Position numbers and translations under genes: made by a program | In this document: positions 1 through 61,079 of the stretch, one piece after another | How the letters are laid out: the number at the start of each line of letters is the position of its first letter | How positions within the stretch are numbered: position 1 is the first letter of the stretch | Notes under the pieces: generated by a model | Seen by the model: only the letters and a program-made list of their open reading frames with translations | The model's database searches: none | What the model was told of the DNA's origin: nothing | Source of the DNA: Dictyostelium discoideum | Lineage: Eukaryota | Assembly: GCA_000004695.1 (NCBI GenBank) | Contig: CM000155.2 | Coordinates: forward strand, 896,001 to 960,000 | DNA: 64,000 nt | Direction of reading: 5' to 3'

Positions 1-846
1 AAATTGATTGATTGATGTGTTATTGTGATTAGTTATTAAATGATTGATAATATTGATTGCTTCATGGTCATTTGCAGTACCAGGTGATAATATCCATCTT
101 TTCTTATGTTTATTTATTTGAAAAGGTGAAGAAATTGTTGTTGATATTGGATTATGATCTGATAATGAAGATGGAATTTGGTGGACTTGAGTATATATAT
201 TTTCAGGGTCTATTCTATTGTATTGAGTATATATTCTATCTAATATGTTACCATGTGTATGAGTTGGAGTGTTTTTAAATTCACCTTGATCAATTAGATG
301 GTGTTGGTATGTGTAGGATTGGATAATATCATCTAATAGTGAATTGTCGTTGTGGATACAGTTGAAATCTCCTGCGATAATAGATACATGTTGGGATTGG
401 TTTGGTATTGGGTTTGTTGAGTGGTTGTGGAGAAGTGTTTGTAGTGAAGTTGCATATGAATTCTTTTTGATGGTATTATTTGATGCTGGTGCGTAAATTC
501 CAAGAATACCAATTGGTAATTGATTTGGAAATATAACGTCTGCTAAAATAGCTCTACCATCAATTGTTGATATGTGTTTGAGTTTGAGTGTGTTTGGGTT
601 ATGGTTAATGATGATTACACCATTTCCTCGTTTGGTGACAGAGATGATGTGATCGGGAAAATCATGTTTAAGTTGTAATGGTGATGAATTGAGTTCAGTG
701 AGTATTGAGATTGTTGGACGAGGTGGAAGTTTTGATATAAGTAGTTGTAGTGTGTCAACAGCTTTTTGGTAGGAATTGTGTTGATTGTTTGGGTTTTCAG
801 TGAATCCTCTACAATTCCAAGTTATAAAGTTGATTTTTGAGCTCAT
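1..846 (-). CDS. Retrotransposon ORF2, N-terminal AP-endonuclease domain (partial; continues beyond the window start)
   Basis: ATG at 846..844 overlaps the ORF1 stop. Translation: MSSKINFITWNCRGFTENPNNQ...LTELNSSPL...GNGVIIINHN...ILGIYAPASNN...IIAGDFNCIHNDNSLLDD. The frame stays open to the window edge. Confidence 0.55.
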   Translation of the reverse strand, partial: MSSKINFITWNCRGFTENPNNQHNSYQKAVDTLQLLISKLPPRPTISILTELNSSPLQLKHDFPDHIISVTKRGNGVIIINHNPNTLKLKHISTIDGRAILADVIFPNQLPIGILGIYAPASNNTIKKNSYATSLQTLLHNHSTNPIPNQSQHVSIIAGDFNCIHNDNSLLDDIIQSYTYQHHLIDQGEFKNTPTHTHGNILDRIYTQYNRIDPENIYTQVHQIPSSLSDHNPISTTISSPFQINKHKKRWILSPGTANDHEAINIINHLITNHNNTSINQF

Positions 847-2265: not shown

Positions 2266-2339
2266 TGCCTCAGGCCGGGATCGAACCAGCGACCTTAAGA
2301 TCTTCAGTCTCACGCTCGTACCAACTGAGCTACTAAGGC
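2266..2339 (-). tRNA. tRNA-Phe (anticodon GAA)
   Basis: Reverse complement reads GCCTTAG TA GCTC AGTTGGTAC GAGC G TGAGA CTGAAGA TCTTA AGGTC GCTGG TTCGATC CCGGC CTGAGGC A. This gives a 7-bp acceptor stem, a 5-bp anticodon stem, anticodon GAA in a 7-nt loop, a T-arm GGTTCGATCC (B box) and discriminator A. The anticodon arm is nearly identical to yeast tRNA-Phe. A T5 pol III terminator follows on the coding strand. Confidence 0.85.
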
Positions 2340-4573: not shown

Positions 4574-7500
4574 TTACTTTGATTTTGGTTTTGGTTTCGG
4601 TTTGGGTTTTGAAGTTGTTTTTTGTTTCTTTTTAATCTTTTCATCATCTGAAGATATTTCTTCTAGTTCAGATTCAGATTCTTCAGATTCTGGTTCAGAC
4701 TCTTCTTCAGATTCTTCTTCAGGTTCACTTTCATCCTTCTTTTGTCTTTTTGCATTTCTTTTTGTGGTTGTGGTAGTGGTGGTTGTAGATTTCTTTTTTG
4801 TAGGTTTCTTTAATTTTACATTTGATTTTTTATCATTTTTATTTGATAGATTATCTTTTTCTTTAATATTGCCATTATTGTCATTATCATCATCATTGTC
4901 ATCATCTAAAATATTTTTACTAAATTTAGAAGGTACCTGCATACCTTGAATATCATGTTTTTCATTCAATGATAAAAGATGAAAATTTAAAGTATCAATT
5001 TGCTTATTATTTGAAATGATTTCAATATTACCATTATTTGCCAATTGTAAACAAGATGTAAACATTCTACAAACCTCATAAGTTGGTGAATTCTTTGTTA
5101 TTTCACCAAATGGAACAGTTGCTTCTTTATTTATTATTATACAATCATCATCATCTTCTTCTTCATCTTCTTCGGTTTCAATGGTTGGTTTAATGATTTC
5201 TTCTTTTAATTTTTTATTTGTTGTTGCAAAAGGTTTCATACCATTTAAAAATTTATTACCATAAACATGAATATCAAAAGTTGGATGAGAATCTTGTTCA
5301 ATTAGAATTGGTGTTAATCTATTGTTCCAATCATTTACTCTTTGTGATAATGCAGTCTCTCTAACGTATTTGGAAGCACTTTCTAAATATTTCTCAACAT
5401 AGGATCTACATAACTCCTCATAGGTTTGTGTTGGTTTACTTAATTCAATATCAATCCCATTCTCTGATATAAATCTTTCTACTACATGTTCTTCTCCATT
5501 TGAATTACCAAAATTATATTGACTACCACCATTTTGAAATGGTCCATCATGATATTCAATATTATTATTATTATTATTATTATTATTATCACCACCTTCA
5601 TAATCTGAATCGTCACCCCCACCACCACCTAAATCACCATAGTCGTCATCATCGTCATCACCCCATCCCATACCAATACCATCTCCATTATTATCTTCAT
5701 TATTATTATTTTCTTGAGTAAAGAACTGTTCTTCATTATTATTATTATTACTGTCATATTCATCATTTAAATCAAAACCATTATTTTTATTTGCTAATCT
5801 TTGTTTTCTTAAAAGTTGTTTATTTTGTTGAATGTTTTTATTATAAAGATAATTTAATTCTTTAAAGAAACAACCTCTTAATGATAATGATTCATTTGGA
5901 AATGAAATGATTGGTTCTGTTGAAAACGATAATACTTTTTCTACTTTATTAGATTCGATTGTTGGTTTCTCTTTTTTCAATTTCTTTTTTTTATCAGAAT
6001 CTAAAAGATTGAATGGAATATTAAATGTTTTACCCTTTTTGAATGGTCTACTATTATTTTTAACATCTTCATCAAATGGATTTAATAATGCCCATGCATC
6101 TTTTGTTGTTGGTTGAACTTGAGCTTTTTTTCTATTTAATCTATCTTTTTTATCATTTAATTTTGAAGATGATGATGATAAATTATTATTATTATTACCA
6201 TTTTCTTGTAGTGTTGGTGGTAGTGGTGGCGGATTAGTACCATCATTATTGTCATCATGTTTCATACCAATACCATCATTATTATCATCATCATCATCAT
6301 CATCATTATTATCATCATCGCTACTATCTTGACCTGCACCTGCATTCTCAAAACCACTACCATCATCTTTATTATTTTCATTTAAATTTGTATTTGAAGA
6401 AGAGGGTTGTAGGGGGTGTTCTCCATTAGGGGGTAGTAACGAGTCATTACTTTTTTCATTTAACTTTTTAAAGAAATCACCACCACCACCACCGCCACCA
6501 TTCATTTGATAGTTATTATTATTATTATCATCTACATCATCAGTATATTGATTCCTGTGAAAATTTAATGGCTTATTATTTGATAGAAAGTTTTCATTAT
6601 CCAAGAAATCTAAACCTCTTAATACCATTGCACCATTCTTTGATACGATTGCATCATTCATTCTAAAATCACTCCTTTTTAAATCATTCTTTTTACCATA
6701 AATTTCATTACTATTACTTTGAATACTATGAATATCTTTTTCATCCATTTCATTGGTACCACTATCACCATTTAAATCCATCATTAAATTCCTATCAGTT
6801 GAACTACTATTATTCATTAATGCAATTTTATAAGTTGATTCATTTGATACTTGATCATCTTCATTCTCTTTTCTTTTATTTGATTTCATTTTTTTTCTTA
6901 TACCACCATCACCACCACCATCCTCTTCTTCATTCTCACCATCATTTAAATCAATATTATCATCTTCAATTAAAATATCATCTAATGCTAAAAATTCTAC
7001 ATCATCTTCATTTTCAATATCTCTATCAACACCTTCTGAATTAATTGATGTTGCATCTTTTCTTTTTCTAATTTTTTTTTTTTTTTTTTATTTTAAAAAT
7101 AAAATAAAATAAAATAAAATAAATAAAATAAATTGTTATTAAATTAATTCATTTTATATTTGTATATTTATTATTATTATTGTAAAATTTTTAATTACTT
7201 TTTTTGTGCTAATAAATCCAATGTTTGATAAAGTAAACTATATAGGTATTCTACTTTTTTACTATAAATAACTGCTGATCCTTGAATTAATAATGCAGCT
7301 AAATTTTTAAAAAAATAAAATTTATATATATCAGTATGATTTTATTACTTTTTTATTTTTTATTATTTTTTTATTTTTTATTTTTTTTTTTTTTCTTACC
7401 TTCAGCGAAATTTAAAGTTTTTACTTGATTAGTACCTTCAAATGTGAATGAAATTTTATCCAAATCTGATAAATAATCTTCCAATTCTTTTGAAATATCA

Positions 7501-7574
7501 ATTTGCCAATTTTCTGCAAGATCTCTAATTGGTTGAATTAGGTATGAATAATCTTTTGTTGCAGTAACTTCCAT
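4574..7574 (-). CDS. ncaph2: Condensin-2 complex subunit H2 (kleisin-beta, NCAPH2). Three exons: 7574..7400, 7298..7199, 7067..4574
   Basis: Exon 1 encodes [59 protein letters not shown], matching the NCAPH2 N-terminus (..LLQPIRDLTKNWEVDVA.QLGEYLEELD.I.ISFDEGKTTMNFIEA). Exon 2 (phase 1) encodes [34 protein letters not shown], matching [23 protein letters not shown]. Exon 3 contains [13 protein letters not shown]...[65 protein letters not shown] and the C-terminal winged-helix motif [23 protein letters not shown]. Splice sites: GTAAG donor at 7399, TAG acceptor at 7301..7299, GTAATT donor at 7198, TAG acceptor at 7070..7068. Confidence 0.75.
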
Positions 7575-7577
7575 CTA

Positions 7578-7608
<31 letters not shown>

Positions 7609-12467: not shown

Positions 12468-13205
12468 TTAAATAATATATTTATTATCTAAAATATATGA
12501 TACCATATTATCTTTATCTTTATTAAATTCCAAACACCATTTTATTGAATTTTTTTTTATATTATTTGTAATTATTTTATTTTTATCATTATTATTATTA
12601 TTATCAATAACTTTATTATTTATATAATTAATTAATAAATTTAATGTTAAAGTTGAAGAGTATTTTATTGAATATTCAATATGATAAGATGTAATTTTAA
12701 AATTTATTATTGATTCTGAAAATAATATTTCTAATAATTGGTTATTATCGGATCTAACAAGAAACATAACATGATCATTTTCAAATTGAAATTGGTATTG
12801 ATTTATTAATAATTTAAAAACTATTAAATGAATGTTTTTAATTTTTGATTGTCCACCAACGATTTTAACAGACTTTATAAAATCTATAATTTCACTTTTT
12901 GTAACTTGTATGAATTGTTTTGTTTCTAATTTATATTTCAATAAATCTAGGCAATTGTTTTTTACCATCCAACCAAATGAATAAATATTTTCAAATTTAA
13001 TTCTATTTTCTGTATAATAATACGTATAGTTTTGAAACTCAATATCCATATTTAGCATTAAATCAAAAATTAATCCATTTAAATATTTGTTTCTAAAAAC
13101 TTTCCAAAATAGTATCTCCCAAATATCCATTGGTATAATTGATTTATTCATTGGTTGAACTATAGATTTATTACTTAGAATATTAATTCCATTTTGTTTT
13201 TCCAT
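12468..13205 (-). CDS. Hypothetical protein, N-terminal part. It is probably the 5' portion of the same gene as 10094..12415, shifted by one frame
   Basis: ATG at 13205, giving a 245-aa ORF MEKQNGINILSNKSIVQPMNKSIIPMDIWEILFWKVF... that ends at TAA 12468..12470. It overlaps by about 20 nt the open upstream extension of the next frame. Confidence 0.4.
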   Translation of the reverse strand: MEKQNGINILSNKSIVQPMNKSIIPMDIWEILFWKVFRNKYLNGLIFDLMLNMDIEFQNYTYYYTENRIKFENIYSFGWMVKNNCLDLLKYKLETKQFIQVTKSEIIDFIKSVKIVGGQSKIKNIHLIVFKLLINQYQFQFENDHVMFLVRSDNNQLLEILFSESIINFKITSYHIEYSIKYSSTLTLNLLINYINNKVIDNNNNNDKNKIITNNIKKNSIKWCLEFNKDKDNMVSYILDNKYII

Positions 13206-17131: not shown

Positions 17132-17707
17132 GTTGAATAGAAAAATAAAATTAAAAAAAAAAAAACAAAAACAAAAAGGAAATTAAAAAGACCTTTGTTT
17201 TTTTTTATATAATTAATATATTTTTATATTTTTTAAAAAATTATTTATTTAATTTTTTCAATTTTTTTTTTTTTTTATATAATTATTTTTTTATAATTCT
17301 AAAAAGAAAAAAAAAAAAAAAAAAGTTTGGGGTGGGGAAAAAGGAGGTGTTTTTTTTTGGGGTGAAAGGGAAAAAAAAAAAAAAAGGGGTGGTTAAGGAT
17401 AAAAAAAGCCCCCATGTGAGTAATGGGACAAGTTGGTTGGATTTTTAAAGTTTTGTTATAATTAATTATACCAATAATATTAAACCTTTTTTTTTGAATT
17501 CCTGTATTTATAAAACAAAAACAAAAAAAAAAAACAAAAAAAAAAAAAATTTTTGGATAAAAAAAAAAAAAAAAAAATAGAAAGAAAAAAAAATAAAAAA
17601 ATAAAAAAACAAACTATTAACTACCTCTCACTCAATAATAATTTTAATGGGGAAAATAAAAATTCAGTTTGACATAAATGCTTTTTTTTTTTTTTTTTTT
17701 TTTTTAA

Positions 17708-50579: not shown

Positions 50580-51959
50580 ATGATTAAAAAAGAATTATCA
50601 AATTATATTCAAAATTATATAATAAAAATTATAGTCAAATATATAAATTCAGAAAAAAGTAGATTGGATGATAATCAATTTAAAGATTATAATAAATTTA
50701 AAAATAAAATTGAAAAATTAATAGAATCAATAGCATTGGTTTGTTGGAGATGGTTTGAAAATGTTTCAAAAAATTTAAATGTTTCAATTGATTATGATTG
50801 TTTAAAAAACAATAATGATAATAATAATAATAAAGAAAAATATTTAATTATTAAACCAAATAATATTAATATTTTAAAGATTAGTAGAGAAAAATTTTCA
50901 TTTATTCAAGGTAATTCCAATTTTTTTATTCCACCAAAAAGAAAATATTTAATTGAATTGGAACAATTTTTAAAAGAATTAAATGATAATATTAAATTAT
51001 TAAAAAATTTAAATCAAATTTTAATTGATAATAATGATTTTGGTATAAATATAAATAATGAATATAAAAGTTTTGAAAAAAGTTTATTATATTTATTAAT
51101 TAAAAGAATTAAAAGATATAAAATATTAAATAAAAATAGTAGTAATTGTAATGAAGAAATTAAAATTGAAATTAAAATTGGATTATCATTATTAACACCA
51201 TTAATGATTATAAAACCACTATTAAATGATTTAATAATAGTTAATGGTGGTGGTGATTCAATTATTAATGAAAATGATTTAAAATCAATTAATTTTATTG
51301 AAAAGATTTCAAATAAAAATTTAGATAATTCAGTATCTGATAGTTTTAAATCAAATGAATTAAAAGTTATTTTAACAAATATTTCAAAAATTAATTCTAT
51401 TGAAGTTTATAATATTAATGAATTATCATTAAAATCAATGTCAAATTATTATAAATCAATTAATAATATTAATATAATTGATCAAGTTTATGAAATTATA
51501 AAAATTCAACAATTATTAAAAGCAATACCAAATTTAAAGAAATTTGAATTTTCATTTTGTTATACAATGTTTTATTATTACTTTTCAAATGGTAATTCAA
51601 ATTTCCTTTGTAATTGTACGGAAACTAATAATGATAGTTTAAATGAATTTAATGAAAATTGGAATTTTATTAAAAATTATATTATAAATAGTAATTGTTT
51701 AATTGAATTATCAATTCAAAGTCAATGTGATATTAATGGTAAAAATGGTGATTTTTTAAATCCTTCATTTTTATTAAAAAATGATCATTATTTTATAAAT
51801 TCTTTTATTTCAATTTTAAATTTAAATAATTCAATTAAAAATTTAAAAATTTCAATTTTAGATAATAATCAAAATAATAATATTATTCTTTCAATTTTAA
51901 ATAATAATAATAATAATAATAATAATATTAAAAAAATAAATAACTTAAAAATAAATTAA
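50580..51959 (+). CDS. N/I/K-rich hypothetical protein
   Basis: Continuous 459-aa ORF from ATG 50580. It has the typical Dictyostelium low-complexity composition and no recognised domain. Confidence 0.4.
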   Translation: MIKKELSNYIQNYIIKIIVKYINSEKSRLDDNQFKDYNKFKNKIEKLIESIALVCWRWFENVSKNLNVSIDYDCLKNNNDNNNNKEKYLIIKPNNINILKISREKFSFIQGNSNFFIPPKRKYLIELEQFLKELNDNIKLLKNLNQILIDNNDFGININNEYKSFEKSLLYLLIKRIKRYKILNKNSSNCNEEIKIEIKIGLSLLTPLMIIKPLLNDLIIVNGGGDSIINENDLKSINFIEKISNKNLDNSVSDSFKSNELKVILTNISKINSIEVYNINELSLKSMSNYYKSINNINIIDQVYEIIKIQQLLKAIPNLKKFEFSFCYTMFYYYFSNGNSNFLCNCTETNNDSLNEFNENWNFIKNYIINSNCLIELSIQSQCDINGKNGDFLNPSFLLKNDHYFINSFISILNLNNSIKNLKISILDNNQNNNIILSILNNNNNNNNNIKKINNLKIN

Positions 51960-52053
51960 AACATTATTACATTTTTATATTTTATATAATTAATTATTTT
52001 ATTATTTTATTATTTTATTATTATTTTTTATTTTATTATTATTATTATTATTT

Positions 52054-52810
52054 TTAATTTGAATTTGATCTTGATCTTGATCTTGATCTTTCTCTTGATC
52101 TTCCATTACCATTTGCATTATTACCAGAGTCAGCAGAAGCAGCATCGCCAGCTGCAATTCTTTCTTTAGAGAGTGAAGAATCTCTCTTTTTTTCTTTTTT
52201 TAGAGATCTTGAACGATCTCTTGAACGATCTCTACTTCTATCTCTTGAACGATCTCTTCTACTACTATAACGACTACCACCACCATTTGATCTTGAACGA
52301 TCTCTACTTCTATCTCTACTATTATTTCTTCTTCTATCTCTACTAGTGTCTCTTATTATATTACCACCATCTCTTGAACGATCTCTACTTCTATCTCTAG
52401 AACGATCTCTTGAGGTATCTCTATTTCTTCTGGCATCTCTTGATCTATCTCTACTTCTATCTCTTGATCTTTCTCTTCTACCATCTCTTGATCTATCTCT
52501 ACTTCTGTCTCTACGATCTCTTCTTCTATCTCTTCTATCTCTAGAACGATCTCTAGAACGGTCTCTTGAACGATCTCTAGAACGATCCCTTGATCTATCT
52601 CTACGATCCCATGATGGTGATCTATATCTTCTTGATCTTCTATCTCTTGAATGTGAACGACTTAGGGATCTATCTCTTGATCTTTTCTTTCCACCATTTG
52701 GACAACTTTTTATCCAATGACCTTCTTGACCACATGCAAAACATTTATTATTATCAGCTATTTATTTTTTTTTTTTTTTTTCACAGTAATAATAAAATAA
52801 AAAATCAGTA

Positions 52811-52898
<88 letters not shown>

Positions 52899-52900
52899 GT

Positions 52901-52932
<32 letters not shown>

Positions 52933-53762
52933 ATTTTAAATTTTATAAAAAAAATAGCAAATATAGGTTTAAGAATGGACACAAAAGAAGCAAAAACATA
53001 AAGAAAAAGATGAATTATGTTGAATGGCATATAGCAATTAGCAATAAATAACACAAACGGTGGAGAGGTGGGAAAGGATGAAGTGAGCACAAAGGAAGGA
53101 AAAAGAGTGAAAAAGGGAAAAGGAGAGAGTGAGACACACAAGACACAAGGTGACTAATGATAATTAATTATCAAATAGTAGTGGATGAGCCATCATGAAT
53201 GAAATGAATGCCTAAAATGACCAATCTTGGGGGTTTTTTTTTTTTTTTTTTTTCTTTTGAAATTAACCAAAAAATTGTAAAAAAAAAAAAAAAAAAAAAA
53301 AAGGTTCTGGCTCTGCTTAATGACCCATTGGAATGATCGGAGAATTAAGAGGCAACTTTTTTTTTTTTTTTTTTTTTTCTGGGCTTTTTTTCTTGGAAAA
53401 AAAAAAAACGGATCTGAAGCGTGATTTAACCGACAAAAATGGAAACGGGAATTCTTAATTTTTTAATTTTTTAATTTTTTTTCCCCTCTTTTTAAAAATA
53501 AAAAAATAAAAAAATTACCTAGAAAAGCAAGGCAAGTAGCAAACTTCTAGGGGGGGCATGAAATAAATTTAGTCAACAGCAAAACATGTCTGTCCCACAA
53601 ACAAAATTTTTTTTTTTTTTTTCCTTTTTTTTTTTTTTTTTTTTTTTTTTCTAAAAACAAAGTGTGGTGGGGTGGGGTGATTTTTTTTTTTTTTTTTTTC
53701 CCAATGAAAAATACAAAAATATTGAGATTTTTATAATTTGAAAAAGAGAGAAAAAGAGAGAG

Positions 53763-53798
<36 letters not shown>

Positions 53799-54082
53799 GA
53801 TGCAGATTGTTAATATAAAGAAAAATAATAAAAAAATAAAAACTTACCATTTTTACCACCTTTTGCCCATTCAACTGAAATTTTACTATTTAATAAGGTT
53901 GTACCATTTAATGCTTTTAAAGCATCATCTGCATCTCTTCTTTCTTTATATTCAACGAAAGCATAACATCTTCCGTTTGTTTTCTTTACATCATTTCTAG
54001 TAATTGTACCATATTTTGAAAAATGGTCATTTAAATTTTTTTGGGTGGTTTCGACTGATAATCTACCTATGTATAATGACAT
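52054..54082 (-). CDS. SR-type splicing factor (SRSF7/9G8-like: RRM + CCHC zinc knuckle + Arg-Asp/Arg-Ser repeat tail). Two exons, 54082..53848 and 52757..52054, separated by a 1090-nt intron
   Basis: Exon 1 is an RRM: MSLYIGRLSVETTQKNLNDHFSKYGTITRNDVKKTNGRCYAFVEYKERRDADDALKALNGTTLLNSKISVEWAKGGKN, with a GTAAGT donor at 53847 (phase 1). Exon 2 follows TAG at 52760..52758 and encodes ADNNKCFACGQEGHWIKSCPNGG (CCHC knuckle), then about 200 aa of RDRS/RSRD dipeptide repeats and the C-terminus ...RSRSRSNSN*. The ORF-track ORF 52346..52720(+) is the antisense of the RS repeat. Confidence 0.65.
53058..53152 (-). promoter_or_regulatory. Pyrimidine tract of about 95 nt (about 84% C+U on the transcribed minus strand) embedded in the long SR-gene intron. 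Candidate splicing-regulatory element
   Basis: The plus strand reads acggtggagaggtgggaaaggatgaagtgagcacaaaggaaggaaaaagagtgaaaaagggaaaaggagagagtgagacacacaagacacaaggtgac. Such a GC-containing strand-asymmetric tract is very atypical in this AT-rich genome. Confidence 0.35.
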
Positions 54083-54154
54083 ATTTACTATTTATATTTA
54101 TATTTATTATTTTTATTATTATATATGTTTTTATATAATATTTATACTTTTAAT

Positions 54155-54188
<34 letters not shown>

Positions 54189-54883
54189 AAAATAAAGCCC
54201 GCACTAATATATAAGAATTTTTTTTTATTTTTTTTTTTTTTTTAATGTATATCCACAAAAAGTTGTTTTTTTATTTTATTTTTTATAAATTATTTTATTA
54301 ATTATTTACAATTATATTACAATGTCAATTTAATTCGTTTTTTTTTTTTTTTTTCTGTTTATTTTTTATTTTTTATTTTTTAATATATCTTGTTATGCTA
54401 TTTTAGAGGTGTGTGGGTGAGTGGAAAAAAAAAAAAAAAAAAAAATAAAAAAATTTATAAAAAAAAATGAAAAAAAAAAAAATAAAAAAGAAAAAAAAAA
54501 GAAAAAAATAAAAAAAAAAAAAAAAAAAAGAAAAAAAAATTAAAAAAAATTTTAAAAAAAAAAAAAAAAAAAAAAAAATCAAACAAAAATGATGTTTTAA
54601 TTATTTGTTATTTTATTTATTTACTTTTATTATTATTATAATTATAATTAGAAACAATTGTAATTGTATAATTTATTTTAATTTTTTTTTTTTTTTTTTT
54701 CATATTTTTTAATTATTTTATTTTATTTTTTTTTTAAAATTTTTTTTTTCAATCGAACGAAGAAATTTTTTTGATATATTTATTTTTTTTTAAATTTTTT
54801 TTTTCTTTTTCAAAACAAATGATTAAAAATAAAAATAAAAAATAAAAAAATATAAAAAATAAAAAAAAATAAAAAATAAATAA

Positions 54884-55927
54884 ATGGATAGTAACAATAG
54901 TAATAATAATAATAAAAATCTAAAACAAATATGTGATATACCAAAACCTCAATTTTTAAGTAAAGGAGTTTTTACATTAGTTGGAGTATTATGTAAATTT
55001 TGGATATCAATGAATACGGTCACAACATCAGGTATTGATAAATTAGTAAATGAAATTGATAAAACTCACCAATTAAAAAGACCAATGATAACAATTGCAA
55101 ATCATTCGTCAAATTTAGATGATCCATTATTATGGGGTGTTTTACCAAATCGTATTTTAATGGATCCATCAAAACAACGTTGGACATTAGGTGCTTCAAA
55201 TATTTTATTTACAAATTGGTTTTATTCTAAATTTTTTTCATTAGGTAAATGTGTAAGTTTTTACATTAATATTATTATAAAAATTAAATGAAATTTCATT
55301 GATTTTTATTTCTTTTATTTTTTATTTTTTATTTTTTTTTTTGAGAAATTTTACTAAAATATCTTTTTTTTTTTTTATTTTTTTTTATTTTTATTTTTTT
55401 TTTTTTATTTTTATTTTAAATTTATCAAAATAAAATAGATTAAAATTGTTAGAGGTGATGGAATTTATCAAGATGGTATGAATGAATCAATTGATAGATT
55501 ATCAGAAGGACAATGGTTACATATATTTCCAGAAGGTAGAATTAGTCAACAAACTCAATTATTATATTTTAAATGGGGTCTTGGTAGATTAGTTGGTGAA
55601 TGTTATAGAAGAACCGGTGTTGTACCATTAGTTGTACCAATTTATCATCAAGGTATGGAGAAATCAATGCCATTAGCAAAATTACCAATACCAAGAGTTG
55701 GTATAAATTTAGATATTAAAGTTGGTGATAATATTTATTGTGATCAAGTAATTTCGAAATATATTGATGATAATAAAATATCTGATCTCACCGATTACCT
55801 TTCACAAGATGATAAAAAACGAAAAGATTTTTATAAAACAATTACGCTTCATATTGAAGATGAATATCAAAAAATTATACCCCCAACCAATAGAGGTCGT
55901 TTTTCTCATCCAACAATTAAAGATTAA
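54884..55927 (+). CDS. taz: Tafazzin (phospholipid:lysophospholipid transacylase, cardiolipin remodelling). Two exons: 54884..55252, 55439..55927
   Basis: Exon 1 encodes ...ITIANHSSNLDDPLLWGVLP...NWFYSKFFSLGKC, with a GTAAGT donor at 55253. Exon 2 follows TAG at 55436..55438 and encodes IKIVRGDGIYQDGMNESIDRLSEGQWLHIFPEGRIS...FKWGLGRLVGEC...VVPIYHQGM. Both are collinear with human tafazzin (NHQSCMDDPHLWG...[42 protein letters not shown]...FKWGIGRLIAEC), including the HX4D acyltransferase motif. Confidence 0.75.
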
Positions 55928-56319: not shown

Positions 56320-57039
56320 AAATTTACAAAATAATTTAAATGTTAATGTTTTAACTATATTAAGAAAATATCAAAAAATTTTCAATGAAATTGAAACGTT
56401 AATATCAAGTTGGGAATATTCAGAGAATAATTTATTTATAGTTTTTAAAAATATTTTATCATTTTTAGAAAGATATAATATATTAATAAATACATCCACA
56501 ATATCAACAATAAATTCAAATGAAATTGATTTAAATAATGACTCAAATGGTATAAGAATTGATTATTTTAGATTATTTAAAGATTCAAATAATAATAATA
56601 ATAATAATAATTCTATAGAATTTGAATTAAAATTAAAAATAATTGATAAATTAGAAGAATCAATGATATCATTAGATGAATATCAAAGAGAAATGAAAAA
56701 AGTTATAGAAAAATTTGATTCGTTTAAAATTGAAATTGACCAATATTGGGAAACAAATATTTTTTCTTTAAAATCATTATCAACAACGACAACAACAACA
56801 ATTGATAAAAATATATATATAAAAATAAATGAATTAAATCAAGGAAGTTTTTCAAATTCACCAATAACACAAATTGATCAATGGTTTCATTTTATTGTTA
56901 ATCAATTTAAATTAGAATTTCAAAGAAGAGATGGTTTATTAAAAAATTTAGAATATAATAAACCAATTAAACAATTAAACTCAATTTTTGAAAATTATGA
57001 AAAAAATACCAATTTTTCTTTAAATAATAGTATGTTTAG

Positions 57040-57073
<34 letters not shown>

Positions 57074-57085
57074 TTTCTTAACTAA
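56138..57085 (+). CDS. N-rich hypothetical protein. It may carry a terminal intron: alternative 3' end 56138..57029 joined to 57115..57161
   Basis: 315-aa ORF with a (AAT)n poly-N tract. The ORF-track C-terminus [16 protein letters not shown] is translated from an A28 run, preceded by a GTATGT at 57030. Splicing from there to TAG|TTAGGGAAATAATACC at 57112..57114 would give ...SLNNIREIIPKVNGVIKEM*. Confidence 0.4.
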
Positions 57086-58164
57086 TTATTATTATTTTTT
57101 TTTTCTATTTTTAGTTAGGGAAATAATACCAAAAGTTAATGGAGTTATAAAAGAAATGTAAATAAAATAAAACAAAATAAAAAACTATTATAAATTTTAT
57201 ATCTTTTTTTTTATTTTTATTTTTATTTTTATTTTTTAATCAAATTATTAAATTAATTGGTTTTTTTTTTTTAAATTTAAATGGTGTTATTTCATTTTAT
57301 TACATGAATTAATACTATCCTTTATTTGGTGTTTCCTAATTGTGTTCCACTAACAAAAAACTAGGAGAAAGAAAAAGTAAAAATTGTCAAGAAAAAAAGA
57401 AAAAATAAAAAATAAAATAAGATAAATATTTATAAAAACAATTTTATATATATTTTTTTTTTAATTACGTTATTATATTTAATTTATTTTTTATTTTTAT
57501 TTATTTTTATTTTAAAAAGCAAGAAAGCTGGAATGCTGCAAAAAAAGCTTACCCTTTTTTTTAAACACCAATTTAACTTTTGGTGCTTTTTTGCAATTGT
57601 TGTGAAAATATCTTTTTAATAATACTAAAAATAATTTTTTTTTTTTATTTGATTGATCAATTGTGTTTGTTATAATTTTTTTTTTTCTAATTTTAAATCG
57701 TTTCCACTGAATACATAGTTTTTTTTTCTCATAATATATTTTTTTTTATTTTCTTTTATTTTCTAATTTTAAAATCCCCATGATACTTATTTTTTTTAAT
57801 TTTTTTTTTATTATTTTTCTATTTAAAACCTAAAATTTTTTTTTTCTTTAATTTTGTTTTCATTTTTAAAAATTATATTGGTTTTTATTTATTAGTTTTA
57901 AATTTTCAATTATAAGTATTATTTAATATTATAAATTTTTCTTTTTATATATTAATTATTTTTTTTTTTTTTCAATTTTAAAATTGAACAAATTTGTCCA
58001 ATTCCGTACTGTATCAATTCTAATCATTTTTAAAGCTCTGCTTGAACTCTCGGTTTCATTTTCACAATTAATATGGCACATCAACCCCCAATTAAACAGG
58101 CTTACGCCCACTACTCTGTACCACATTATCAGTATTTCAATGGCCATGAAAGAGTTTTTGTGTA

Positions 58165-58329: not shown

Positions 58330-58565
58330 ATATAAAAATAAATGAATTAAATCAAGGAAGTTTTTCAAATTCATCATTAACACAAATTGATCAATGTTTT
58401 CATTTTATTATTAATTAATTTAAATTAGAATTTCAAAGAAGAGATAGTTATTAAAAATTTTGGAATATAATAAACCAATTAAACAATTAAACTCAATTTT
58501 TTGAAAATTATGAAAAGAATATCACTTTTTCTTTAAATATAATAGTATGTTTGGGAAATAAAAAA
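58330..58565 (+). pseudogene. Degenerate segmental duplicate (about 235 bp) of the 3' end of gene 56138..57085, including the start of its putative terminal intron
   Basis: 58330..58565 (aaaaataaatgaattaaatcaaggaagtttttcaaattcatcattaacacaaattgatcaatgttttcattttatt...ttctttaaatataatagtatgtttggg) aligns with 56815..57045 (..caaattcaccaataacacaaattgatcaatggtttcattttattgtt...tttctttaaataatagtatgtttag). There are about 10% substitutions and small indels that break the frame. Confidence 0.5.
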
Positions 58566-58735
58566 AAAAAAAATAAAAAAAATCATTTTCATAATTATTA
58601 TTTTCTAAAGTGTGTTGGCTGGGGAAAAAAAAAAAAAAAAAAAAAATATACAAATAATATAAGAAAAATACAATAAACAAGTAGGAAATAGGATATATTA
58701 TGTTTGATAACTCTCTGAAATCTAATTTATTGAAT

Positions 58736-60856: not shown

Positions 60857-61079
60857 AAATCTTTTTTTTTTTTGACTATTTTTAATTTCCAATAAAACAT
60901 CTAAAAATAAATAATTACTTTTTTTAAAATACCCATAGTTTAAATCTCATTCAAATTGAAAAAAGAGTAAAATTTAAAAATTTAAAAGAAAATAATAAAA
61001 ATAACCCTTTTCAAGCTTTTGTTAATCAAATTCAAATTTTAACTTGTTATTCTCAATTTTTTTTTTTTTCCACTAGTAA

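Follow-up and report, generated by a model that had tools for sequence, protein, structure and literature searches.

A long intron of conserved position, with a C/U-rich block, in a dictyostelid SR-protein gene, a candidate for feedback by retention or alternative processing

In this report, we examine a 64-kb window of Dictyostelium discoideum DNA (the whole stretch that was analysed), focusing on a serine/arginine-rich (SR) protein gene at positions 52054..54082 of its minus strand and on the long intron that divides this gene. Exon 1 (53848..54082, minus strand) carries the ATG and an RNA recognition motif (RRM), comprises codons 1-78 plus 1 nt, and ends in ...AAAAATG|GTAAGT. Exon 2 (52054..52757, minus strand) contains a CCHC zinc knuckle, an RD/RS-rich domain and the stop codon, opening at 52758/52757 with ...AAATAG|CTGATAAT and stopping at 52054. 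Between the two lies an intron of 1090 nt (52758..53847, minus strand), inserted in phase 1 and bordered by GT..AG dinucleotides, with ends reading GTAAGT...ATAG. Joining the exons yields an open reading frame (ORF) of 939 nt encoding 312 aa, in which Pfam places RRM_1 at residues 3-68 (E = 2e-17), directly followed by a zf-CCHC knuckle at residues 82-99 (E = 5e-06). The knuckle sequence, CFACGQEGHWIKSC, is kept in all orthologues, and the C-terminal tail of about 200 residues, as read from the translation, is built of RDRS/RSRD repeats with a higher Asp content than that of classical RS domains.

The RRM exon and the knuckle exon are assigned to one gene because both domains are contiguous in the closest non-dictyostelid homologues, which read ...VEWAKGG..CF.CG..GHW..C.. 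across the boundary. Additionally, in a second D. discoideum assembly (GCA_054883475.1), whose exon 1 is identical to that of the window, the NCBI annotation has a 312-residue gene spanning exactly the same range. The exon coordinates 54082..53848 and 52757..52054, first proposed from the letters of the window alone (hereafter the sequence-only reading), are thus borne out by the ORF, by Pfam and by the NCBI annotation as those of a single 312-aa gene. Judged by its domain sequence, the product is an SR protein of the RRM plus CCHC zinc-knuckle subfamily, with the architecture of SRSF7/9G8 and of plant RSZ proteins. SRSF7/9G8- and RSZ-type names occur among its database neighbours, and the RRM itself is generic by sequence, with SR proteins, including SRSF7 and SRSF3 at middle ranks, among its PDB matches.

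The sequence-only reading had singled out this intron for its length, its homopolymers and trinucleotide array, and its pyrimidine tract, and all of these hold. At 1090 nt (1066 nt in the second assembly), the intron stands out locally: among the neighbouring genes annotated in the loci of six species, none has more than 554 nt of intron in total, and the remaining introns of these SR genes measure 71-115 nt. In D. discoideum, published introns average 146 nt (PMC3188802), with a median of 104 nt (PMC4683709), the published genome figures together giving means of 146 and 177 nt and medians of 104 and 78 nt (PMC3188802, PMC4683709). With a GC content of 22.5%, the whole intron is close to the window average (21.5%), and it is the GC islands alone that stand out. 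About 40% of the D. discoideum intron consists of homopolymer or microsatellite, including an (ATT/TAA)n trinucleotide array detected by TRF at 52787..52898, which lengthens the intron in D. discoideum, is specific to this species and is missing from D. firmibasis. On the minus strand, pyrimidines make up 84.2% of the 95-nt tract at 53058..53152, whose GC content is 47%.

Orthologous genes were located through tafazzin, the divergently transcribed neighbour of the SR gene, by fetching contigs that carry tafazzin; protein searches with the SR protein returned no dictyostelid orthologues. The SR gene adjoins tafazzin, with its orientation kept, in D. firmibasis, D. purpureum, P. violaceum, T. 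lacteum and C. fasciculata, and no SR gene lies beside tafazzin in A. subglobosum. In all five orthologues, the long intron is inserted at the same codon and in the same phase, after base 1 of the codon following ...EWAKGGK(N/S/A), with borders of the type GTAAGT/GTATGT...TAG. Its length is 1064 nt in D. firmibasis, 1082 nt in D. purpureum, 783 nt in P. violaceum, 529 nt in T. lacteum and 943 nt in C. fasciculata. The intron is therefore held at 4-10x normal length, at one codon and in one phase, in six dictyostelid species, which together cover groups 1, 3 and 4 and the P. violaceum complex. The split between D. discoideum and D. purpureum has been estimated at about 400 million years ago (PMC3188802), and intron loss is frequent among dictyostelids (PMC4683709).

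Two observations on these loci can be added. The SR gene and tafazzin remain divergent neighbours from group 1 through group 4. For the C. fasciculata SR gene (locus 5648..7599), the sole single-intron solution that fits the annotated 297 aa removes 115 nt and cuts into the RRM (...ALN|EWAKGG), and a shorter intron would keep ...ALNGLNLHGVKMCVEWAKGG; this annotation may be mis-spliced, because the 297-aa solution deletes part of the RRM.

Within the intron lies a C/U-rich block of 183 nt (52971..53153, minus strand), which on the sense strand is 79% pyrimidine and 28% C. Running from 53153 to 52971 in the direction of transcription, it contains the 95-nt tract as its core, and its G residues occur mostly in UGU or UGC. 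A scan for C-rich pyrimidine segments recovered one such block, 137-216 nt long, in the last third of all six introns, on the sense strand only and with 74-80% pyrimidine and 28-40% C. From the end of the block to the 3' splice site, the distance is about 90-113 nt, extending to 213 nt in D. discoideum and 178 nt in P. violaceum. In each 17-kb locus, scored on both strands, the block ranks first or second, the usual competitor in most loci being the trivial one, namely the antisense of the SR gene's own GA-rich RS-coding exon. Of the comparable segments examined in the 64-kb window, three lie under long ORFs of the opposite strand or are antisense-like to acidic coding sequence. The sole other sizeable non-coding C/T-rich segment found in the window is a promoter-like stretch at 17301..17441 (minus strand), with CCCC islands amid T and A runs.

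The blocks of the six species also share a grammar, in that 89 of 107 G residues are preceded by T (60 in TGT and 20 in TGC), and the k-mers TGTGT, TGTCT, TTTGT and CTCTC are enriched. Two further properties were considered and set aside. Predicted duplexes between the block and the GA-rich exon 2 reach -50 to -110 kcal/mol, which is no better than for shuffled sequences, the complementarity being compositional. Moreover, four of the six introns have no AG for 210-395 nt ahead of the 3' splice site, which could be taken as the sign of a distant branch point but is explained by the general preference for G after T.

Primary sequence is shared over a much shorter evolutionary range. The introns of D. 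discoideum and D. firmibasis have in common four complex blocks of 90-95% identity, exceeding the third codon positions of exon 1 (81% identical), and in the promoter region common to both species the conserved stretches are of low complexity only. One conserved block (53133..53233, minus strand; about 90-95% identical to D. firmibasis) lies directly upstream of the C/U-rich block and extends into it; its conservation exceeds that of the coding exons, yet no counterpart can be recognised in D. purpureum or in more distant species. A second (53409..53456, minus strand; ..TTCTTGTCGGTTAAATCACGCTTCAGATCCG) is identical to D. firmibasis at 56 of 61 positions and is correctly read in the second assembly only. 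A third (53500..53542, minus strand; TTGCTACTTGCCTTGCTTTTCTA..) matches at 40 of 43 positions and is followed by a GTAATT "donor" that exists only in the window version. An exact 27-mer taken from a conserved block had no match in a metagenome collection.

The most conserved intron block also holds a 10-codon ORF, MMAHPLLFDN plus stop (about 53164..53196, minus strand), which is identical in D. firmibasis despite three base differences, all at third positions and including TAA to TAG. It is missing from D. purpureum and beyond, and its conservation may be a coincidence; no other conserved ORF was found in the intron. Across wider distances, no non-trivial k-mer of at least 9 nt is common to three lineages, and local alignments against the introns of D. 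purpureum and more distant species reach no higher scores than those of dinucleotide-shuffled sequences. Block similarities to D. purpureum that were suspected by eye likewise fell within chance. Aligning the intron across species, a check proposed by the sequence-only reading, thus shows position, phase, length and block to be kept, but primary sequence only in D. firmibasis.

Some of the intron sequence in the window is itself doubtful. Over 21.4 kb of overlap, the window differs from the second D. discoideum assembly by 29 substitutions clustered in two short AT-rich segments, with 21 of them at 53381..53738, inside the intron, and six at 60961..61079. The intronic segment sits among long homopolymers and also shows indels relative to the second assembly. 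Of the 21 intronic sites, D. firmibasis shares the base of the second assembly at 15 and that of the window at one. Base-call error in the window is the simplest reading of these differences, and, because of this agreement of D. firmibasis with the second assembly, the practical outcome is that the window sequence at 53381..53738 is probably inaccurate. For example, the C7 run at 53551..53557 reads CCACACC in the second assembly. The GC islands emphasised by the sequence-only reading do stand out from the intron, but the C7 run and much of 53404..53450 look like sequence artefacts. An internal donor look-alike, CTAG|GTAATT (about 53520), is found in the window version alone and reads CTA-GTTATT in the second assembly, so that a 28-nt frameshifting micro-exon ending at this donor was rejected.

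A profile scan of the metagenome collection provided a view of the transcript in the form of a 1618-nt contig, whose product is identical to that of P. violaceum at 104 of the 108 N-terminal residues. Both introns are absent from the contig, and the junction is exactly as predicted (...GGTAAATCTG|CAGATAACAAGTG...). The sample is most likely a metatranscriptome, because tafazzin and ArgJ, which bear introns in P. violaceum, are uninterrupted ORFs in contigs of the same sample and in matching SRA runs; the contig is accordingly most likely the spliced mRNA of a close P. violaceum relative. It supports the exon junction and is uninformative on other isoforms. Ahead of the coding region, the contig has a leader of at least 514 nt (1..514), including about 135 nt of near-pure T and a 34-nt stretch, ATAGATATTTAATATCATTGTATATATAAATACT, identical to the region upstream of the P. 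violaceum gene (locus about 7345..7378). This leader represents either an unusually long 5' untranslated region or upstream transcription assembled into the contig. A literature search for splicing isoforms of Dictyostelium SR genes found nothing specific.

We tentatively regard the 1.09-kb intron as a conserved regulatory intron of the dictyostelid RRM plus zinc-knuckle SR gene, and as a candidate for feedback that would probably proceed by retention or alternative processing. The C/U-rich block could serve as a landing platform on the pre-mRNA, bound by the SR protein itself or by a different RNA-binding protein, and its occupancy would set the efficiency with which the long intron is removed. 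SRSF3-type RRMs are reported to prefer C/U-rich motifs, a preference that would fit the block. Failed splicing, or processing that ends within the intron, would then produce an unproductive transcript encoding only a truncated RRM, with negative feedback on the SR protein level as the outcome. Translation continued from exon 1 into the intron runs into a stop after 12 codons in D. discoideum, the range across species being 2-72 codons, and no database record was found for the read-through ORF. The proposed feedback is likened to that of SR genes in animals and plants and to that of fungal SRSF5 orthologues, in which a long intron is retained. Among the possible modes, intron retention is favoured, followed by polyadenylation just past the block and then by a cassette poison exon; retention is ranked first because it needs no internal splice sites, and the cassette exon last because most species are without a consensus donor.

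The sequence-only reading had already suggested an autoregulatory element here. This suggestion is in keeping with the conservation of position, phase, length and C/T block in six species, from which we infer the autoregulation itself. Somewhat less likely is the broader proposal that dictyostelid SR genes are under the control of a feedback intron defined by composition rather than by sequence, in which a C/U-rich platform of 140-220 nt punctuated by UGU would be the conserved element.

Several points weigh against a feedback intron. Homopolymers and microsatellite account for about 40% of the D. discoideum intron, and beyond D. firmibasis no significant primary-sequence similarity is detected, composition and position being conserved instead. 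Conserved internal splice sites were not found in the six introns, four of which are devoid of a GTA donor within the block or past it, and the only transcript recovered, that of the P. violaceum relative, is fully spliced. An older survey of expressed sequence tags reported D. discoideum SR genes without alternative splicing (PMC3173450). The two closest non-dictyostelid homologues with DNA available carry no intron at this site. Furthermore, the RRM is generic in sequence, with SRSF7 and SRSF3 no more than mid-ranking among its PDB matches. Finally, a role at the DNA level could give the same conservation of composition and position.

Such a DNA-level role, in which the intron would be an enhancer or internal promoter and the block a cluster of transcription-factor sites or a polypurine/polypyrimidine structure, appears unlikely, yet it accounts for several features. 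It envisages CACCC/G-box-type sites together with the A/T homopolymers typical of Dictyostelium promoters, and the 5' half of the group-4 introns is indeed intergenic-like, with long A/T runs around short G/C islands. A CACCC or C-A-rich box at 53661..53684 (minus strand), reading gtgtggtggggtggggtga on the plus strand and already pointed out by the sequence-only reading, has A-runs on both sides and is kept in D. firmibasis. A second box of this kind occurs at 54408..54424 (minus strand), ahead of exon 1, and both boxes are oriented like the SR gene; non-coding boxes of the CACCC type are very few in the 64 kb, and the SR gene has these two. Both resemble the C-A-rich and G-box elements of Dictyostelium promoters, and conservation of composition without sequence is also typical of enhancers. 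However, the strand asymmetry of the block is the same in all six species, which is expected of an RNA element and not required of a DNA element. An internal promoter could also yield no protein, exon 2 being without an in-frame ATG, and the introns of P. violaceum, T. lacteum and C. fasciculata keep the block without the homopolymer-rich architecture.

Within post-transcriptional autoregulation, a sub-mode would be a cassette poison exon, or an alternative terminal exon cleaved after AATAAA, giving a truncated, unproductive mRNA; we consider this version improbable. In D. discoideum and C. fasciculata, the block begins exactly at an AG, and the distance from the block to the 3' splice site is about what a dictyostelid intron normally measures. 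In the three group-4 species, AATAAA followed by A19-A25 occurs 12-48 nt past the block, and this AT-rich stretch is identical at 30 of 32 positions between D. discoideum and D. firmibasis. Nonetheless, DNA so rich in A and T should contain such signals by chance, and in P. violaceum no AATAAA follows the block. An internal GTA-type donor in or after the block is missing in D. discoideum, D. firmibasis and C. fasciculata, that of D. purpureum is poor, and the sole good-looking donor in D. discoideum is the CTAG|GTAATT that disappears in the second assembly. A cassette exon within the C/T block was therefore rejected for want of consensus donors in most species, and the regulatory alternative exon envisaged by the sequence-only reading finds no conserved splice sites across the six.

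Quite unlikely, too, is that the intron is functionless, a long intron of the dictyostelid ancestor that was never lost, its block having arisen by accident of composition or as a side effect of biased mutation or transcription. This would agree with the absence of deep sequence conservation, with the recent simple-sequence expansion that makes up much of the D. discoideum length, and with the two-fold variation in length across species. It fits poorly with an oversize intron and a block of the same type, strand and relative place in six of six species, in a lineage with many documented intron losses (PMC4683709), and with blocks shared by D. discoideum and D. firmibasis that surpass the flanking exon's third codon positions in conservation.

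An embedded small non-coding RNA (ncRNA) gene, either a class I RNA driven by a Dictyostelium upstream sequence element (DUSE) or an intron-hosted small nucleolar RNA (snoRNA), is highly improbable: the DUSE-like 8-mer that prompted the idea looks like a chance match, and no class I motif, Rfam family, stable fold or deep conservation accompanies it. This 8-mer, TCCCACAA (53593..53600, plus strand), fits WCCCAYAA exactly, as the sequence-only reading had noted, and is followed about 60 nt downstream by a G-rich stretch and a T-run, resembling Dictyostelium class I ncRNA genes with their [AT]CCCA[CT]AA 8-mer and a G-rich sequence at this distance; small RNAs in introns are also common in other eukaryotes. 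The pattern nevertheless occurs five times in the window against 9.9 expected, and this instance is not conserved in D. firmibasis. Class I ncRNAs further have an 11-nt motif, CCTTACAGCAA, and their 5' and 3' ends pair in a short stem. The intron differs in lacking the terminal stem and any match to the 11-mer with up to two mismatches. Rfam at the gathering threshold returned only tRNAs in the whole window and the five orthologous loci, and at a relaxed threshold only poly-A/poly-T hairpins in 51500..55000. Six islands folded on both strands gave z values of -0.84 to +1.67, none better than shuffles. A snoRNA or class I RNA would be expected to leave a k-mer of at least 9 nt common to three or more lineages, and none exists; for snoRNAs of box C/D or H/ACA architecture, neither an Rfam family in the window or the five loci nor a deeply conserved k-mer was found, no dedicated snoRNA finder having been run.

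Other features of the window and of the orthologous loci lie outside the SR gene. As seen from the SR gene, ArgJ lies beyond tafazzin in group 4, P. violaceum and T. lacteum, on the tafazzin strand in D. firmibasis and D. purpureum and on the opposite strand in P. violaceum and T. lacteum; in C. fasciculata, it is not adjacent to tafazzin. In the D. purpureum locus, a tRNA gene (12881..12953) separates ArgJ from the next gene. The window carries a tRNA-Phe (GAA) gene at 2266..2339 (minus strand) and a stretch of about 275 nt that is present twice, about 1.5 kb apart, with 91% identity (56817..57090 and 58330..58602).

Returning to the feedback proposed for the SR intron, unproductive-splicing autoregulation of splicing factors is documented in animals, plants and fungi. 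The fungal SRSF5 orthologues of Neurospora and Aspergillus (Lareau & Brenner 2015, PMC4379411) offer the closest parallels: there, too, an SR gene in an organism of short introns has one position-conserved intron among the longest of the genome, described as "notably long", with unconserved sequence and an in-frame stop if retained. That intron is retained and targeted by nonsense-mediated decay (NMD), and both its retention and its NMD sensitivity were shown by experiment, whereas the Dictyostelium case is known from sequence. The fungal proteins are moreover of the two-RRM type, in contrast to the one RRM plus zinc knuckle encoded here, and the Dictyostelium gene belongs to another supergroup, Amoebozoa, and has a compositionally conserved C/U-rich block.

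With animal SRSF3/SRSF7 genes, which have poison cassette exons, and with plant RSZ/RS2Z genes, whose long introns are alternatively spliced, the dictyostelid gene shares the RRM, the CCHC knuckle (SRSF7, RSZ) and the RS domain, an intron between the RNA-binding part and the RS domain (the regulated one in animals and plants), and, as proposed here, an autoregulatory logic. The poison exons of animal SRSF3/SRSF7 differ in being ultraconserved, true cassette exons with splice sites, whereas in the dictyostelid introns neither deep sequence conservation nor conserved internal splice sites were found.

For Amoebozoa, a literature search on unproductive-splicing autoregulation found nothing, and the cross-kingdom study of SR unproductive splicing leaves out amoebae (PMC4379411). 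The autoregulatory reading of the D. discoideum intron is plausible and, if true, would place a known type of control in a supergroup for which no report was found, extending SR-gene unproductive splicing to Amoebozoa. In that case, either the feedback would date back to an ancestor shared by amoebae, fungi and animals, or it would have arisen anew at the same site in the gene. A deletable block of 183 nt, in a tractable organism with very few SR genes and very short introns, makes this a testable case, which could help decide between ancestral and convergent feedback and could show how a regulatory element persists without conservation of its sequence.

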